This document shows, in pieces, positions 3,931-48,304 of a DNA stretch of 64,000 nt. This stretch comes from an uncultured Candidatus Solibacter sp. (GTDB lineage Bacteria > Acidobacteriota > Terriglobia > Bryobacterales > Bryobacteraceae). Below the pieces are notes generated by a model. That model was not told the origin of the DNA. It saw only the letters and a list, made by a program, of their open reading frames with translations, and did no database searches. Position 1 is the stretch's first letter. The number at the start of each line of letters is the position of its first letter. The DNA lies in NCBI GenBank assembly GCA_964478395.1, contig CAYZIX010000002.1:29761-93760 (forward strand), read 5' to 3'. Both the position numbers and the translations under genes were made by a program.

Positions 3931-4509
3931 ATGAAATTCGCCGCTGCGCTTCTTATCTCGCTCGCCACGCTGAGCGCCCAGACTGGACTGATTGAAGGCC
4001 GTGCCAACAGCCCGGTGCGCGTCGTCATATACGAGGACTTGCAGTGCCCGGACTGCGCCGTCTTCCGCCAGATGCTCGACGAAAAGCTGCTGCCACGCTA
4101 CGCCGCCAAGGTTGCCTTTGTACAGCGTGATTTCCCACTGGCCAAACACGCCTGGGCCATGCCTGCGGCGATTGCGTCACGCTACTTGCAGACCATTTCC
4201 ACCGCGACGGCCGCCGAGTTCCGGCGCGAGACCATGCGCGCGCAAAGCGACATCAAGGGCGACACGTTCCGCGACTGGCTGAAGGCGTTCTGCGACAAGC
4301 GCGGACTGGACGCAGCCAAGGCCCTGGCCGCGCTCGATGACGCGGCATTACGCGCCGCGGTGCAGAAGGATTTCGACGACGGCGCGGCGCGCGGCGTCGC
4401 GCACACGCCCACCGCGTTGGTGAACGGCGTACCGTTTATCGAGACATTCACTTTTGAAGAGATATCCAAGGGCATTGACGCAGCCCTGAAGGAGAACGGA
4501 ATCGAATGA
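3931..4509 (+). CDS. DsbA/thioredoxin-like disulfide oxidoreductase
   Basis: Signal peptide MKFAAALL, YEDLQCPDC (CxxC), cis-Pro loop GVAHTPTALVNG. Confidence 0.88.
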   Translation: MKFAAALLISLATLSAQTGLIEGRANSPVRVVIYEDLQCPDCAVFRQMLDEKLLPRYAAKVAFVQRDFPLAKHAWAMPAAIASRYLQTISTATAAEFRRETMRAQSDIKGDTFRDWLKAFCDKRGLDAAKALAALDDAALRAAVQKDFDDGAARGVAHTPTALVNGVPFIETFTFEEISKGIDAALKENGIE

Positions 4510-9824: not shown

Positions 9825-12236
9825 CTATTCGCGCAGTGCGCGGCCAGGGTCGATACGCGCGGCCCGGCGCGCCGGGAACACGCAAGCCGCCGCGCCAACT
9901 ACCAGAATGCTGGCTGCCACGGCGGCAAAGGTAAGCGGATCAAAAGGCTCGACGCCATAGAGCATCTGACGCAGCGCCTGCGTGGCCAGCGGAGCCGCGG
10001 AAAGCCCGGCCAGCAGGCCGGCCACCGTCAGGCCAAGGCCCTGGCGGACCACCATCTTGAGCACGTTTTGCGGCGTGGCGCCCAGCGCCATCCGGATACC
10101 GATTTCACGCCCACGTTGCGCCACGGCCACTGCCAGCACGCCATATAACCCGATGGCGGCCAGCACCACGGCCAGGCCGGCAAAGGCCACCAGCATCACC
10201 ATGGCCAACTGCTGTTGGCTGATGGAACGCTCCAGCATCACCTCCAGTGGTGTGACGCGGTCCAGCGGTGTTTCCGGATCAATCTCAAAGACGGCGCGCC
10301 GGGCCGGCTCAGCCAGCGCCGCGGCCGGCCCGGTCGTCTTCAACACTAAAAACATAAACGACCACGGACGTTGTTGATGTGGCTGGTAAATCACAGCCGC
10401 CGGAGATTCACCCGGCCGGCGTTGCGCCATGTCGTTCACTACGCCGATCACGCGCGCGGTCACTTCGGGCTGCTCCGTGATATGCAAACTGATGCTGTGG
10501 CCCACCGCATCCTGGCCCGGAAAATACTTTTTGGCCAGACTTTCGCTGACAATGACCACCGGCGGCGCCGTAGCATCGTCCGCATCGGAGAAATCGCGCC
10601 CGCTCAACAGGCGCGCGCCGACGGTCTGGAAATAGCGGGGTGTCGCCGTATTGTAGTGAGCCAGCGGCCGCGAACCCATCTGCACCGCATCCGGCGAAAA
10701 CTCCGCCATCCAGTTGTCGACTCCGATCAGCGGCGGCAGAACGGCCCCACCAGCGTCAACGACGCCCGGCAGAGTGCGTAAGCGCTCCACCACACGGCGC
10801 ACAAACAGCGCCCGGGAAGGATCGTCGGGATGGCGCACCGGCGAGATCATCACGCGCATGCTCAACACCCCTTCGGGGCGGAAACCCGCGTTGGTGCGAA
10901 TCAGCCCGCTATATGTGCGCAGCAGCAGGCCCGCCGCCACCAGCAGGATGACTGACATCGCCACTTCGCTCACCACCAGCAGCGAGCGCATCAGGCTGCG
11001 CCCGGCGCCGCCCGAACTGCCGCGCGACTCCTCACCCAGCACACGCGACAGATTCAAACGCAGCGTCTGCCAAGCCGGAGCGATGCCGAAGAGAACTCCG
11101 GCCAGCATGGCCACCACCAACGTAAACAGCAGCACGTTCGGGCTGAGCGAAAGCTCGCTGATACGCGGCAGCCGCAGCGCGCCCCACCCGCGCGCCACAC
11201 GCACGCACCACGCCGCCAGCACGAGCCCGGCCATGGCGCCAGCCAATGCCAGTAGCACGCTTTCCAGCAGCATCTGACGAAAAATGCGCCACTGTGACGC
11301 GCCCAACGCAGAGCGTATGGCTACCTCGCGGGCGCGTGCCGCCCCGCGAACCAGCAACAGGCTGGCCAGATTGGCGCAGGCAATCAGCAACACCAAGCCC
11401 ACCGCCGCCGCCAGCACGCCCAGCGGCTGTGCTGCGTCGCCGCGCACGCGGCTCATCATCGTCACAAGCCGAATTTCCTGACCTGCGTTCGAGGCCGGAA
11501 AGCGCTCAGCCATGGAGCGCGACCGCGCCAGCAGCTCCGCACCGGCCTGTTCCGCCGTCACTCCGTCGCGCAACCGCCCCACCGTCACGGCCATGCGTGC
11601 GTTACGCATGGTCAGCAGTTCGGGCTCATAGGGCAACGGCAGATAGACATCCGGCGGCCGCACCTCCCCCCGCAGAGGCGGCAGAACGCCCGCCACCAAG
11701 TGATCTTCACGCTCCAGCCGGATTGTCTGGCCGACAATTGACGCATCGCCGCCAAAACGATTCACCCACAAATTATTCGAAAGAATTACGGCTTGGTTGT
11801 GCCGTGGCTCAAATTCAGTCTCTACAAAACGGCGGCCCAGCATCGGCTCAATACCGAGAGTTTCAAAATAGTCACGCGATACAAAGGCGCCCATCAATGT
11901 CAGGGGTTCGCCGCGTCCGGTCATAGTAACCGGCTGAAACATTGATGCGCCAAGCGAAGAACACGTACGCAACGTATGTTCCAATTCAGCAAATTCAGGA
12001 ACGCTTAATTCGGATGGCGGGCGGCCTTTTAGCGTATCCCGCACCGACAAATAGTAGAGCCGGTCGAGGTCACGGTAGGGCACCGGCTTCAGCAGAACGC
12101 TGTCTACCAGGCTGAAGATTGCGCTATTCGCGCCGATACCCAGGGCCAGCAAAAAGATAGCCGCCAAGCTGAAGCCGGGCTGGCGTGCCAACAGACGCAC
12201 GGCGTACCGAATATCTTCCCACCAAGAAGAGAGCAT
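9825..12236 (-). CDS. ABC permease, MacB/FtsX-like, ADOP (acidobacterial duplicated orphan permease) type
   Basis: Begins MLSSWWEDIRYAVRLLARQPGF; two FtsX modules (REVAIRSALGAS, REIGIRMALGA); ends AARIDPGRALRE. Confidence 0.92.
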   Translation of the reverse strand: MLSSWWEDIRYAVRLLARQPGFSLAAIFLLALGIGANSAIFSLVDSVLLKPVPYRDLDRLYYLSVRDTLKGRPPSELSVPEFAELEHTLRTCSSLGASMFQPVTMTGRGEPLTLMGAFVSRDYFETLGIEPMLGRRFVETEFEPRHNQAVILSNNLWVNRFGGDASIVGQTIRLEREDHLVAGVLPPLRGEVRPPDVYLPLPYEPELLTMRNARMAVTVGRLRDGVTAEQAGAELLARSRSMAERFPASNAGQEIRLVTMMSRVRGDAAQPLGVLAAAVGLVLLIACANLASLLLVRGAARAREVAIRSALGASQWRIFRQMLLESVLLALAGAMAGLVLAAWCVRVARGWGALRLPRISELSLSPNVLLFTLVVAMLAGVLFGIAPAWQTLRLNLSRVLGEESRGSSGGAGRSLMRSLLVVSEVAMSVILLVAAGLLLRTYSGLIRTNAGFRPEGVLSMRVMISPVRHPDDPSRALFVRRVVERLRTLPGVVDAGGAVLPPLIGVDNWMAEFSPDAVQMGSRPLAHYNTATPRYFQTVGARLLSGRDFSDADDATAPPVVIVSESLAKKYFPGQDAVGHSISLHITEQPEVTARVIGVVNDMAQRRPGESPAAVIYQPHQQRPWSFMFLVLKTTGPAAALAEPARRAVFEIDPETPLDRVTPLEVMLERSISQQQLAMVMLVAFAGLAVVLAAIGLYGVLAVAVAQRGREIGIRMALGATPQNVLKMVVRQGLGLTVAGLLAGLSAAPLATQALRQMLYGVEPFDPLTFAAVAASILVVGAAACVFPARRAARIDPGRALRE

Positions 12237-12288
12237 ACGTTCTCGCAGATGGGAGTATTTTATCTCATATTTGCCAATAAAGGCAGAT

Positions 12289-44528: not shown

Positions 44529-45809
44529 ATGCACTCAAACTGTGCGGTGACTCGTCCAGTCCCCGGCGTCGCGTTTCTGCTCACCGTTGCACTGGGCGTC
44601 ACGCTGCCTTGCCAGGCCCAGCAGGTTTCACGTGGCGAGGCTGTGCCTCTCCGGAACTGGAGTCTGGCGGAGAGGTCGGTTGACGCCGCCCTGGCGTCGG
44701 AAAACACCGCCACAAGCGCGGTAAAAGGCCTCATATTCATCGCCGTATCGCCTTGCCGCATGGCGGACACGCGAGCCGATTCCGGCAAGACGGGCATCTT
44801 CGGCGCGCCCGGGCTGAAGTCGATGGTAGCGCGCAGAATCATCGTTCCCCAGTCGAGCTGCGGCCTGCCGGCGGCTGCCGCTTATTCCTTGAATATCGTC
44901 TCGGTCAGCGCGGCCGGCGCGTCGGTCGGCTGGGTCGCCGCATGGTCTGGCGACATCGCCAATTGGCCCGGCACGGTGGTGCTGAACGCTCCGCAGGGAG
45001 GAGTGGTCAACGCCTCGGCGGTGGTTGCGGCGGGAACCGACGGCAGCATCCAGGTGCTCGCATCGTCCGACACCGATCTGGTGATCGACGTGAACGGGTA
45101 CTGGGTTCAGCAGTCGGCGCTGAACTTCCGTGGAGCCTGGAGCCGGACCGTCGCCTACAGCGCTGGTGACGTCGTGACGGCGCATGACGGGGTCTGGTAT
45201 TCCTCCTCGACGTCGGCCTACGTCGCCGTTACCGCCAACACCGGTCTCGATCCCCAATACAACTGGGGTACCGGCAATGCGGCTTGGACGATGCTGGCCT
45301 CTGCCGGTTCGCCGGGCGATGTCGGCGCCACCGGCCCGCAAGGGCCTGCCGGGCCTACAGGAGCCACCGGCGCCACTGGACCACAAGGCCCGGTCGGACC
45401 GGCGGGACCGGCGGCCACGACGGCAGGCTACCTGCTGACGTCCAATCTCTACACCACCAACACTGTGTATCCGATGTACCTGCCGCTCAGCGGCACCATG
45501 GACCCTTCGGCAGGTAATAACACGTTCACCGCGCGGGCCACCATCATGCCGGCCGCCTGCACAATCAAGAAGCTGTACATCTTCGACGGCGCCGATTCAA
45601 CAGTCAGTGCGGGAGTGCGCGTCTACCGCTCGGTTGCCGGGACCGGGACACCCACCGATACGGGGATTCTCGCGGTCTCCAACTTCGGTCACGGCGCCTC
45701 CACGGCCGCCAGCGTGGATCTCGCGGCTGGCGATACGCTCGCCTTCTACGTGACGCCAGGCGCCCCAGGCGGGACCATGGCGCTCACCATCGGATTGCTC
45801 TGCCAGTAG
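44529..45809 (+). CDS. Secreted collagen-like repeat protein
   Basis: Signal peptide, PCRMADTR...DVNGY domain, FRGAW...YSAGDVV module, 12 Gly-X-Y triplets, C-terminal beta-rich domain. Confidence 0.8.
   Translation: MHSNCAVTRPVPGVAFLLTVALGVTLPCQAQQVSRGEAVPLRNWSLAERSVDAALASENTATSAVKGLIFIAVSPCRMADTRADSGKTGIFGAPGLKSMVARRIIVPQSSCGLPAAAAYSLNIVSVSAAGASVGWVAAWSGDIANWPGTVVLNAPQGGVVNASAVVAAGTDGSIQVLASSDTDLVIDVNGYWVQQSALNFRGAWSRTVAYSAGDVVTAHDGVWYSSSTSAYVAVTANTGLDPQYNWGTGNAAWTMLASAGSPGDVGATGPQGPAGPTGATGATGPQGPVGPAGPAATTAGYLLTSNLYTTNTVYPMYLPLSGTMDPSAGNNTFTARATIMPAACTIKKLYIFDGADSTVSAGVRVYRSVAGTGTPTDTGILAVSNFGHGASTAASVDLAAGDTLAFYVTPGAPGGTMALTIGLLCQ
45306..45413 (+). repeat. Collagen (Gly-X-Y)12 coding repeat
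   Basis: GSP GDV GAT GPQ GPA GPT GAT GAT GPQ GPV GPA GPA. Confidence 0.9.
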
Positions 45810-45939
45810 CCGGCGGCCGGGACTCCGGCGCCGGACGGAATAATCGCCATAAGCCCCGGCTAGACCATTTTCCGGATGATTGTAATTGGCAAGCTGAGCC
45901 GGGCCAGACGCTAAAGCATTGAATCAAAAACGCTTTTGA

Positions 45940-46048
45940 CCCCGGGCGTGAGCCCGGGGCTGCGTCCTGGTACGACAATCTCTTTGAAAACGGTCCAGGC
46001 CATCTTCAGAGAAACTGTCGTGGCGGACGAAAGCCCCGGGCTTCAGCC
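45940..46048. repeat. Inverted pair of REP-like hairpins
   Basis: CCCCGGGC-GTGA-GCCCGGGG (45940-45959) and a decayed inverted copy AGCCCCGGGCTTCAGCC (46032-46048); the shared 11-bp arms are perfect inverted repeats. Confidence 0.55.
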
Positions 46049-46059
46049 TTTGTTTTGAC

Positions 46060-46241
46060 CCAACGCTTGAGCGTTGAGCTTGCCTCGGGTGGCCCAACTC
46101 CTCGAACATACGCCGCTCCGCACCGCAAATGACGGCGGTTTCACGGGCATAATGGCCATGCTTAAAGGCGTTCGTGGCAGAGCGGGCCTTGCTGCTTTTC
46201 ATTTTCGGGCCACGCGATATTGTAGTGTGGCCGATCTGCAC
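46060..46241 (-). pseudogene. Remnant of a 'GPKT..GK..S..NA.KHG' family gene
   Basis: SRGPKMKSSKARSATNAFKHGHYARETAVI motif, after which the frame runs into the REP hairpins. Confidence 0.35.
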
Positions 46242-46615
46242 AATCTATAGATCGAGTCGCCGTCATGTGGAAGCCCGTTGCGGAAAGCCGACTTGGTGGT
46301 CCCGATCTAGGGCTTTGTACGGGTGGGCGACGATCCGGCCGGAGCAGTAGCCCTTTAACCAGAAGCGCCAGAATCCTCGGGCGCTATCAGGCGATCGAGG
46401 TGCTCCTGCCTGAATTCTGATCTGAATCGGATCGGAATGGTGACCTTCTTCAGTGGATTCCTAAACGTGGCGCGCGCGTACCGATTTATAATGAGCTTGC
46501 CCTCTAGGCGCCTGAAATCGATCCGGGAGCTTGTAGTGCAAAAGGCCTTAGACAACTGCGTGATCATTACCGCAGCCGCGCTTGAAATACAACATACATA
46601 TAGGAGGAAATAGCG

Positions 46616-47656
46616 ATGGCAAAGAGACCCGTTCCCACGAAGGCGTCAGCGCCGAAAGCCGTTGTACCCAGATATCCAAGAAACACGCTTGAAAAGGTCT
46701 TGAGGATCCCCAAGGCAATCCTCGACCAAAATGCGGGGAAGGAATGCTCGGACAAAGACATCGCAACCTTCCTCGGCATTAAGTACAATAAGGGTCCCTT
46801 CGCGCTCGAACTCAGCTCCGCCATCAAGTTCGGTTTGCTCGAACGGCCATCAGCCGGCCGCATTGCAGTCTCAGATCTGGCGAAGAAGATCCTCCGCCCG
46901 CAGAAAGAGCAGGAGGAACTTGCCGGCCTACGCGAAGCCGTGCTGATGGCTCCTGAAATCTCGACGGTTTACAGCCACTATCGCGGCGAGAACCTGCCGG
47001 ACATGCAGTTCTTTGACAACGCCCTTGTCGACAAGTTTGGCATCCCGAAAGACAAGGCCGCAGAATTCAAAGTGATCTTTTTCGACACGCTCAACACCGC
47101 AAAGTTGATCGAGGAGCATAACGGTAAGCAGCGCCTTATCGATGTATCGGGCGACGTGCCCGTCGGCAGTTCAGGCTCTACCGCCGTCCTGAAGAAGCTT
47201 GAAAAATCCGTGACCATTGCCGCAGGCGATTCCTGCTTCGTCATGATGCCCTTCGCTGCCCCGCTAGGGACATATTACGAGAAAGTCTACAAGCCCGCCA
47301 TCGAGAAGGCGGGCCTCAAGCCGGTCCGGGCCGATGCAGAAATATTCGGTACCGGCAAAATTATGGACCAGGTATGGTCGGGCATAAACGCTGCCAAGGT
47401 CCTCGTCGCCGAAATGACCACACGCAACCCGAACGTCTTCTATGAGTTGGGCCTCGCACATGCCCTGAAGAAGCCAGTCGTCCTCGTGTCATCTAACGAA
47501 GTCGACGTGCCTTTTGACCTCAAACATATCCGCGTCATTTATTACGATGTAAACGATCCGTTCTGGGGGAACAAGCTATTGGACAAGGTCGCGGAGAACA
47601 TTCTGTCAGCGATCCAACACCCGGAGGAAGCAGTTTTCAAGGGAGAAGGCGAGTAG
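46616..47656 (+). CDS. Winged-helix-like N-domain + nucleoside 2-deoxyribosyltransferase/TIR-like C-domain protein
   Basis: C-terminal CFVMMPF...VRAD...IMDQVWSGI...LVAEMTTRNPNVFYELGLAHALKKPVVLV...PFDL; strong RBS AGGAGG; ~50% GC in spot counts. Confidence 0.8.
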   Translation: MAKRPVPTKASAPKAVVPRYPRNTLEKVLRIPKAILDQNAGKECSDKDIATFLGIKYNKGPFALELSSAIKFGLLERPSAGRIAVSDLAKKILRPQKEQEELAGLREAVLMAPEISTVYSHYRGENLPDMQFFDNALVDKFGIPKDKAAEFKVIFFDTLNTAKLIEEHNGKQRLIDVSGDVPVGSSGSTAVLKKLEKSVTIAAGDSCFVMMPFAAPLGTYYEKVYKPAIEKAGLKPVRADAEIFGTGKIMDQVWSGINAAKVLVAEMTTRNPNVFYELGLAHALKKPVVLVSSNEVDVPFDLKHIRVIYYDVNDPFWGNKLLDKVAENILSAIQHPEEAVFKGEGE

Positions 47657-47907: not shown

Positions 47908-48195
47908 ATGCCGAGTGAAACGACGTATAGCAGCCTGCGCGCGAACCTGGCTACTGCGCTCGACCAGGTGGTAGATCAGCAGGACACCGTGATCATACGC
48001 CGGAGAGGAGCGCGCGACGTCGCCCTGATGCCCGCATCCGAACTCGCCGGGCTAATGGAAACCGCGCATCTGCTGCGCTCCCCCCGCAACGCACGCCGCC
48101 TGATGACGGCGCTGCACCGCGCAGAGGCTGGCCACGTCAAACCGGGAACCACTGCCGCATTGCGTAAAGAGATGCTCGGTGAAGCAGCATCCTAG
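47908..48195 (+). CDS. yefM: Phd/YefM antitoxin
   Basis: TYSSLRANLATALDQV...TVIIRRRG..DVALM...LMETAHLLRSPRNARRLMTAL. Confidence 0.92.
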   Translation: MPSETTYSSLRANLATALDQVVDQQDTVIIRRRGARDVALMPASELAGLMETAHLLRSPRNARRLMTALHRAEAGHVKPGTTAALRKEMLGEAAS

Positions 48196-48304
48196 CCGGG
48201 CCGCCCTGTTTCAGCCGGAGTTCCTTCAAGATCTGCGGTTCTGGGGGAAGAGCGAACGGAGCGTTGCAGTCCGCGCCCTCCCTCTGGTTTTGGCTAGGCG
48301 GTGA
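48179..48304 (+). pseudogene. yoeB: Truncated Txe/YoeB toxin
   Basis: Manual translation from GTG 48179: MKQHPSRAALFQPEFLQDLRFWGKSERSVAVRALPLVLARR* (41 aa). This is the YoeB N-terminal helix region only; the catalytic C-terminal half is missing. Confidence 0.75.

Follow-up and report, generated by a model that had tools for sequence, protein, structure and literature searches.

Gene and locus

The window analysed here is a stretch of 64,000 nucleotides from contig CAYZIX010000002.1 of an uncultured Candidatus Solibacter sp., and the gene in question occupies positions 46616–47656 of its forward strand. It is an intact open reading frame (ORF) of 346 aa, whose product is predicted to join tandem winged helices to an N-glycosidase domain related to nucleoside 2-deoxyribosyltransferases (NDTs). 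A Shine-Dalgarno sequence, AGGAGG, can be read off the sequence at 46602–46607 (+), 8 nt 5′ of the ATG. The intact gene and strong ribosome-binding site named in the original prediction, made from the sequence alone, are confirmed. The GGA core of this element is invariant across seven aligned homologous upstream regions. The gene lies within an islet of lower G+C of about 2 kb, between a gene for a collagen-repeat protein and ubiE. The G+C content had been put at about 50%; the dip is real but smaller, with 54.7% measured for the gene (69% at third codon positions, GC3) against 64–69% (GC3 78–85%) for the flanking genes.

The ratio of nonsynonymous to synonymous substitution (dN/dS) ranges from 0.036 to 0.068 in comparisons with six close homologues, with synonymous sites near saturation. 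These low ratios, together with the thousands of homologues described below, argue that this is not a chance ORF; on sequence comparison, the gene is functional and under strong purifying selection. DNA similarity with the closest homologues starts at 46480–46589, that is 27–136 nt 5′ of the ATG, and stops exactly at the stop codon. Alignment of the upstream regions revealed a box, ACCGATTTATAATGAG, at 46480–46495 (+), which is kept in the window and in four homologous loci (L001, L014, L015 and L017) and includes a −10-like TATAAT at 46487–46492, about 124 nt before the start codon. This box is likely the gene’s own candidate promoter. A generic promoter scan did not call it, and an Rfam search of the leader and flanks matched no RNA element.

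Domain architecture of the protein

AlphaFold modelled the protein with a predicted local distance difference test (pLDDT) score of 87.9. Residues 204–346 (47225–47656 (+), including the stop codon) form a predicted NDT/DNPH1-like N-glycosidase domain of the DrHyd superfamily, an assignment based on fold, profile and conservation. Foldseek related this domain at a probability of 1.0 to DNPH1, NDT, BcmB and BlsM, with target template-modelling scores up to 0.69, and a sequence search of the PDB returned Rcl/DNPH1 as its best match (E 0.004 with the single sequence, 1e-4 with the family profile). The NDT-like flavodoxin fold originally proposed from short motifs, a three-layer Rossmannoid, is thereby upheld. 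All the motifs quoted for it are present in the translation: FVMMPF (within CFVMMPF, residues 207–213), RAD (residues 238–240) and NPNVFYELGLAHAL (residues 271–284), as are the N-terminal strings YPRNTLEKVL, IATFLG, LSSAIKFGLLE and VSDLAKKIL.

The glutamate of the YELG motif had been assigned the nucleophile position. This residue, Glu277 (codon 47444–47446), located where the helix following strand 4 begins, aligns with the nucleophile of DNPH1/Rcl and is kept in 48 of 49 family members and in all of 75 distant relatives of the C-terminal domain, in agreement with its role as putative nucleophile. Across these distant relatives, which share 22–51% identity, N273, Y276, E277, H282 and R306 are invariant, and F208, F213, R238, D240, N271, P299 and D301 nearly so. 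The region of the general acid is harder to place. HMMER sets D69 of Rcl opposite V253, and the adjacent position 252 is Asp in 63 of the 75 relatives; the full-length subfamily has an invariant Gln252, preceded by Asp or Glu at position 251, near the general-acid Asp (D72 of the NDT LlNDT, D69 of Rcl), the alignment register being uncertain by one residue.

Against PF05014 the domain scores 22.8 bits, under the gathering cut-off of 28.8, and 53 of the 75 distant relatives match this family (E < 1e-3). The most fitting description of the domain, by sequence, is that of a divergent family that is sister to PF05014. Among other collections, PADLOC gave a partial match to ‘Effector TIR’ (E 8.6e-9), PHROGs gave families of unknown function (phrog_3634 at 3e-25), and the top BFVD matches comprise a hydrolase of cytidine monophosphate (CMP)/hydroxymethyl-CMP in first place, a Cap12/Pycsar TIR-domain protein in second, and also viral NDTs.

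Elsewhere the domain occurs in fusions with GAF and response-regulator receiver domains (6 of 75 proteins), the effector-associated domains EAD7/EAD8, TIR and PP2C/SpoIIE, and some plasmid-borne relatives are named ‘TRAFs-binding domain-containing protein’ by NCBI. A 391-aa protein with two tandem NDT-like domains, 33–42% identical to the C-terminal domain of the window protein, is encoded at 11111–12283 (−) of locus L014, where it adjoins, convergently, the closest genome homologue (92–93% identical).

The N-terminal half begins with a basic Lys/Pro/Ala-rich tail (residues 1–20, 46616–46675 (+)) with an isoelectric point (pI) of 11.2, which is poorly conserved and has low pLDDT. It is followed by two units that each consist of helices and then a β-hairpin. 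The first (residues 21–95, 46676–46900 (+); pI 9.9) is modelled with pLDDT > 90, and the second (residues 96–176, 46901–47143 (+)), supported by the model and by conservation, is acidic (pI 4.9) and contains the conserved HYRGENLPD. A flexible linker (residues 177–203, 47144–47224 (+)) leads to the enzyme domain, with pLDDT < 50 at residues 181–187 and a majority-residue fraction of 0.43.

Modelled separately, the N-terminal half reached a pLDDT of 87.7 and a predicted template-modelling score of 0.81. Its Foldseek matches, at E ~0.01, are all to winged-helix proteins of a generic kind, namely the N-domains of O-methyltransferases, Pol III C34, IdeR/DtxR, GntR and SelB WH2-4, and no family covered it in a Pfam scan. 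The model thus supports the tandem winged helices of the original prediction, whereas the kinship suggested there with winged helices fused to Mrr or TIR effectors found no support; the generic matches and the lack of a Pfam family leave the module without a link to a specific sensor class.

Distribution and horizontal spread

A word-indexed search that scored 8,000 candidates with an E cut-off of 0.001 gave 3,709 matches, the best 120 of which are 66–92% identical to the window protein. An exhaustive search of 50%-identity representatives returned 22,578 clusters at E ≤ 0.001, mostly the C-terminal domain alone in other architectures. Relatives are encoded at no fewer than 532 loci among species-representative genomes. 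The best 80 of these are 60–93% identical and fall, on a tree, into 14 phylum-level groups, including Acidobacteriota, Planctomycetota, Pseudomonadota, Bacteroidota, Verrucomicrobiota, Nitrospirota, Bdellovibrionota, Spirochaetota and Gemmatimonadota, plus one Peregrinibacteria genome.

A tree of 84 sequences requires 29 changes of phylum, and none of 40 relatives of the source genome holds a full-length copy. On these sequence distributions the gene is accessory and horizontally spread. Near-identical copies (branch lengths ~0.05) were seen in a Nitrospira metagenome-assembled genome (MAG), a gammaproteobacterial MAG and a Polaromonas isolate (L056, L058 and L074); they represent either very recent transfer between phyla or cross-contamination during binning.

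Relatives of the C-terminal domain, of about 220–230 aa and with the NDT-like domain at their N-terminus, occur in temperate Streptococcus and Staphylococcus phages (for example at 4004–4699 of L094 and 3983–4642 of L095), all annotated as hypothetical. They face against the surrounding early genes or sit in the lysogeny module, a placement that is usual for prophage-borne defence morons.

Genomic neighbourhoods and solo organisation

We clustered all ORFs within 6 kb of the gene at 83 loci, and no neighbour family was found at a fixed position; the most frequent, generic ABC ATPases and integrases, occurred at 10 and 7 loci, respectively. No cyclase partner recurs in these loci, and none of the top 25 neighbour families listed is a cyclase family. 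The solo, cyclase-free organisation that had been proposed is consistent with this lack of a conserved neighbour. The 92%-complete source genome likewise gave no match to the reverse transcriptase (RT) family RVT_1, with positive controls. In two contexts a 543-aa protein is encoded 5′ of the gene; the two proteins are unrelated and were rejected as a conserved partner.

The 146 nearest neighbours include phage integrases (four), TIR_2 (four), SEFIR, HsdR, Mrr, PIN and AbiEii/AriA-type ATPases (two each), as well as MmeI, Bpu10I, a CBASS 4TM effector and ThsB-like proteins; type I, II and IIG restriction-modification (R-M) are represented. These nearest genes matched 194 PADLOC families, compared with 91 for 136 control genes taken 8–9 genes away at the same loci, among which housekeeping Pfam families dominate, with neither TIR nor integrase among the top families. 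The expectation that homologues lie near defence genes is borne out to the extent that such genes are commoner beside the gene than 8–9 genes away, a qualitative comparison read from top-25 family tallies and carrying no enrichment statistic.

Precomputed Pfam annotation of seven contexts agrees with this picture, revealing two Mrr genes together with a DDE transposase; an integrase beside an nSTAND-like ATPase; RadC next to a type I R-M system; RelB and PIN; HicB; an element with integrase, excisionase, rolling-circle replication (RCR) Rep and SNF2 genes; and one uninformative context. The homologue neighbourhoods fit residence in variable, defence-rich regions. Y1 (IS200/RAYT-like) transposase genes also recur next to homologues in other genomes.

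At five of the 83 loci, belonging to five clades (L043, L084, L032, L053 and L060), the gene lies 3′ of a class Ia/II ribonucleotide reductase gene on the same strand. The genes that come next encode TIR/SEFIR-NACHT proteins, a Y1 transposase with an AHH nuclease, or DUF3800; in Cupriavidus, a TIR-NACHT gene is directly 3′ of the homologue. Functional coupling to the reductase was considered and set aside, the following genes being of defence or mobile type in three of the four such loci scanned. These genes lead us to interpret the adjacency as a variable hotspot that recurs, and not as an operon, although it keeps a role in nucleotide metabolism alive as a rival explanation.

The low-G+C islet and its other features

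The original prediction placed the gene in a relic island, which is partly supported. In favour of this are the 2-kb G+C dip, an orphan antitoxin gene and the lack of a full-length copy in the 40 relatives, whereas an empty site could not be demonstrated because the ubiE side is non-syntenic in the four same-genus genomes compared. Pfam matched no family among nine flanking ORF fragments, and a search for terminal repeats or attC-like sites flanking the gene found nothing convincing.

The antitoxin gene, of Phd/YefM type, lies at 47908–48195 (+) (PF02604, E 1.1e-15; NF008499, E 2.1e-14) and is a neighbour in the islet, not a part of the system. No intact toxin ORF was found 3′ of it. The end of the antitoxin gene is overlapped by a 41-aa ORF (48179–48304) that has no Pfam match and, on our reading, resembles the N-terminal part of a YoeB/Txe-type toxin, so the two may be a decayed toxin–antitoxin (TA) pair. 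Just 5′ of the islet, at 45934–46072, a G+C-rich hairpin unit (TTTTGACCCCGGGCGTGAGCCCGGGG...) is present two or three times at intervals of about 95–120 nt; by their sequence these copies look like repetitive extragenic palindromic (REP) elements. The collagen-repeat gene (44529–45809) encodes a 426-aa protein with a short run of collagen-like GPxG repeats (Pfam Collagen, E 7.7e-5, under the cut-off) and an apparent N-terminal signal sequence.

Relation to known systems

Computational work has established that proteins of the TIR-DrHyd-SLOG class serve conflict systems centred on nucleotides, both as effectors and as sensors (PMC9503650). Two sets of experimentally studied systems resemble the window protein on paper, although it is a member of neither. 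The first is RcaT, the type II retron effector, which has anti-phage roles, combines an NDT-like domain with a winged-helix DNA-binding domain, needs its catalytic Glu, hydrolyses nicotinamide adenine dinucleotide (NAD+) or auto-ADP-ribosylates, and is toxic in an oligomerisation-dependent manner; its NDT domain comes first, and it requires a complex of RT and multicopy single-stranded DNA (msDNA) (10.1101/2023.08.16.553469; 10.64898/2026.10.13.758329; PMC7736814). The likeness to RcaT (Retron-Eco1/Ec86, Sen2 and Eco3) is the pairing of an NDT-like and a winged-helix domain in one polypeptide. However, the order is reversed in the window protein, which has two winged helices and a basic tail where RcaT has one DNA-binding module. 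Furthermore, RcaT uses RT and msDNA as sensor or antitoxin, whereas the source genome lacks an RT and the gene has no conserved neighbour. When every PDB chain was searched with the profile and matches up to E 10 were admitted, DNPH1/Rcl and noise came back but no retron effector, and none was among the top 50 Foldseek hits. The absent RT, the lack of a conserved neighbour and the lack of detectable similarity together rule out membership of the type II retron effectors.

The second set comprises Swarozyc, Evangelion and ‘NIR’, single-gene mobile systems in which a DUF4062 TIR-like NADase, a Rossmannoid glycosidase of the TIR/NDT class with a catalytic Glu, is joined to a phage-recognising helix-turn-helix (HTH)/winged auxiliary domain and depletes NAD+ in abortive infection (10.64898/2026.05.01.722283; 10.64898/2026.06.25.731849; 10.64898/2026.09.04.749371). 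The auxiliary domain of Swarozyc binds the phage portal (10.64898/2026.05.01.722283; 10.64898/2026.06.25.731849). The window protein shares with them the single gene and the enzyme core with an auxiliary HTH/winged region. Their enzyme domain is N-terminal, whereas that of the window protein is C-terminal and nearest to PF05014, an order reversed relative to KpSwz (10.64898/2026.05.01.722283). DUF4062 membership was rejected, since the protein has no DUF4062 match at E up to 1 (Pfam lists PF05014 only) and none of the 75 relatives has one at 1e-3.

The closest relatives in fold and sequence, DNPH1/Rcl, the NDTs and the CMP N-glycosidases BcmB/BlsM/MilB, share the nucleophile Glu at the start of a V/F-Y-E-L-G helix. 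They differ in being small single-domain metabolic enzymes of 120–160 aa without winged helices, and their identity to the window domain is 14–21%. The window subfamily is further set apart from them by Gln252 near the general-acid position and by the additional invariant residues R238, D240, N271, N273, H282, D297-x-P-x-D301 and R306. A likeness to the TIR effectors of CBASS, Pycsar and Thoeris is seen in the PADLOC and BFVD matches given above; however, they require a partner, either a cyclase or of ThsA type, as well as a nucleotide signal. The window gene has no such partner linked to it, and the Pfam scan of the window protein gave no TIR match. Divona, a DUF4365 nuclease, was also considered as an identity and is a different gene.

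Proposed function and alternative explanations

We consider the protein to be a partner-free, horizontally mobile conflict protein in which the winged-helix module controls an NDT-class glycosidase, and assign this reading a probability of about 0.5. The conflict role would probably be anti-phage, making the protein, on our analysis, a credible candidate for a one-gene immune protein. In its favour are the fold with its invariant Glu277, the matches to TIR effectors in PADLOC and BFVD, the two confidently modelled winged-helix units and basic tail, the solo and mobile organisation, the defence and mobile-element neighbourhoods, the phage-borne and EAD7/EAD8-fused relatives of the C-terminal domain, and the precedents set by RcaT and the DUF4062 systems. 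The basic tail and the two winged-helix units would serve as the sensor or targeting module, joined by the flexible linker to the NDT/DNPH1-class domain, in which Glu277 would attack C1′ of a (deoxy)ribose. At rest the enzyme would be kept inactive. Binding of an invader cue by the winged-helix module, either nucleic acid or, as in Swarozyc, a phage protein, would then cause the enzyme domains to pair up. Pairing is proposed because enzymes of the NDT fold work as dimers or larger oligomers. The paired domains might act by hydrolysis on NAD+ or a (deoxy)nucleotide, or they might ADP-ribosylate a target, and this action would stop growth of the infected cell.

Several observations weigh against this reading. 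Identities of 60–93% across phyla and a dN/dS of about 0.04 are unusually tight for an immune sensor, as immune sensors usually diversify. This cross-phylum conservation is the least expected feature of the family, and its unusual tightness argues for a universal ligand or target. Searches of 50,697 phage and 72,556 plasmid records found no full-length copy, the winged-helix module had no match to any known sensor in Foldseek, and most nearest neighbours are ordinary or unannotated, the neighbourhood signal being a qualitative one. Fusions of C-domain relatives to GAF and receiver domains hint at signalling roles. In addition, because Gln252 sits near the position of the general-acid Asp, the chemistry may differ from hydrolysis of deoxynucleoside monophosphates (dNMPs). 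A missing general acid would presumably matter less for hydrolysis of NAD+ than of dNMPs, since nicotinamide leaves without protonation.

A distinctly improbable variant of the conflict role is that the winged helices and basic tail seat the NDT-like domain on nucleic acid, where it would make an N-glycosidic cut in, or ADP-ribosylate, invader DNA, rather than deplete a soluble pool. The protein would then be an immune glycosidase or ADP-ribosyltransferase directed at DNA and free of any partner. DNA as a universal target would explain how one nearly unchanged protein could work in at least 14 phyla. Very strong purifying selection would suit an accessory enzyme of nucleotide metabolism or DNA care, recruited by its winged helices and sometimes co-expressed with ribonucleotide reductase, which would clear non-canonical (deoxy)nucleotides in the manner of DNPH1 or act as a DNA-tethered glycosylase. 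The best sequence and fold matches, to DNPH1/Rcl, NDT and the CMP N-glycosidases, point the same way, as do the leading BFVD match to a CMP/hydroxymethyl-CMP hydrolase and the same-strand position 3′ of reductase genes in five separate clades. However, the gene is patchy, horizontally spread and absent from all 40 relatives, the genes that follow at the reductase loci fit a hotspot and not an operon, and integrase, R-M, TIR and TA genes recur as neighbours; we regard such a role as unlikely.

It is quite unlikely, in our view, that the protein regulates or helps maintain mobile elements as a DNA-binding factor that senses nucleotides; its NDT-like domain would bind rather than cleave a nucleotide ligand and so control DNA binding by the winged helices. 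The GAF and receiver fusions (6 of 75) would suit such a role, and the conserved upstream leader could be an autoregulatory site, but the nucleophile Glu and the polar residues around it are invariant over a very wide family, as catalysis predicts, and a regulator would normally travel with its target genes, whereas nothing is co-conserved with this one. The integrase, rolling-circle Rep and TA genes often found beside the gene, together with the temperate-phage relatives of the C-terminal domain, are compatible with a counter-defence factor or selfish toxin of mobile elements, which might degrade the nucleotides used in immune signalling or serve as an addiction toxin; in principle, signals derived from ADP-ribose could be cleaved by enzymes of the NDT/TIR class (PMC9503650). 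This we hold to be very improbable: most copies are chromosomal with no recognisable element around them, catalogued phages and plasmids hold no full-length copy, no antitoxin is co-conserved, and both prophages examined carry the relative in the orientation of a lysogeny-expressed moron, as is typical of defence genes.

Implications

Were the protein to protect against phages, a very widespread immune module made of one gene, with thousands of members in at least 14 phyla, would join those already described. Relatives of its enzyme domain number in the tens of thousands, and the module is unnamed in current defence catalogues and in Pfam. The NDT-plus-DNA-binding logic of retron effectors could then work without a retron, and the unusually tight conservation of the family would point to a universal trigger or target. 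Should the protein prove metabolic or regulatory instead, it would warn against taking every TIR/NDT-like fusion close to mobile genes for an immune protein.

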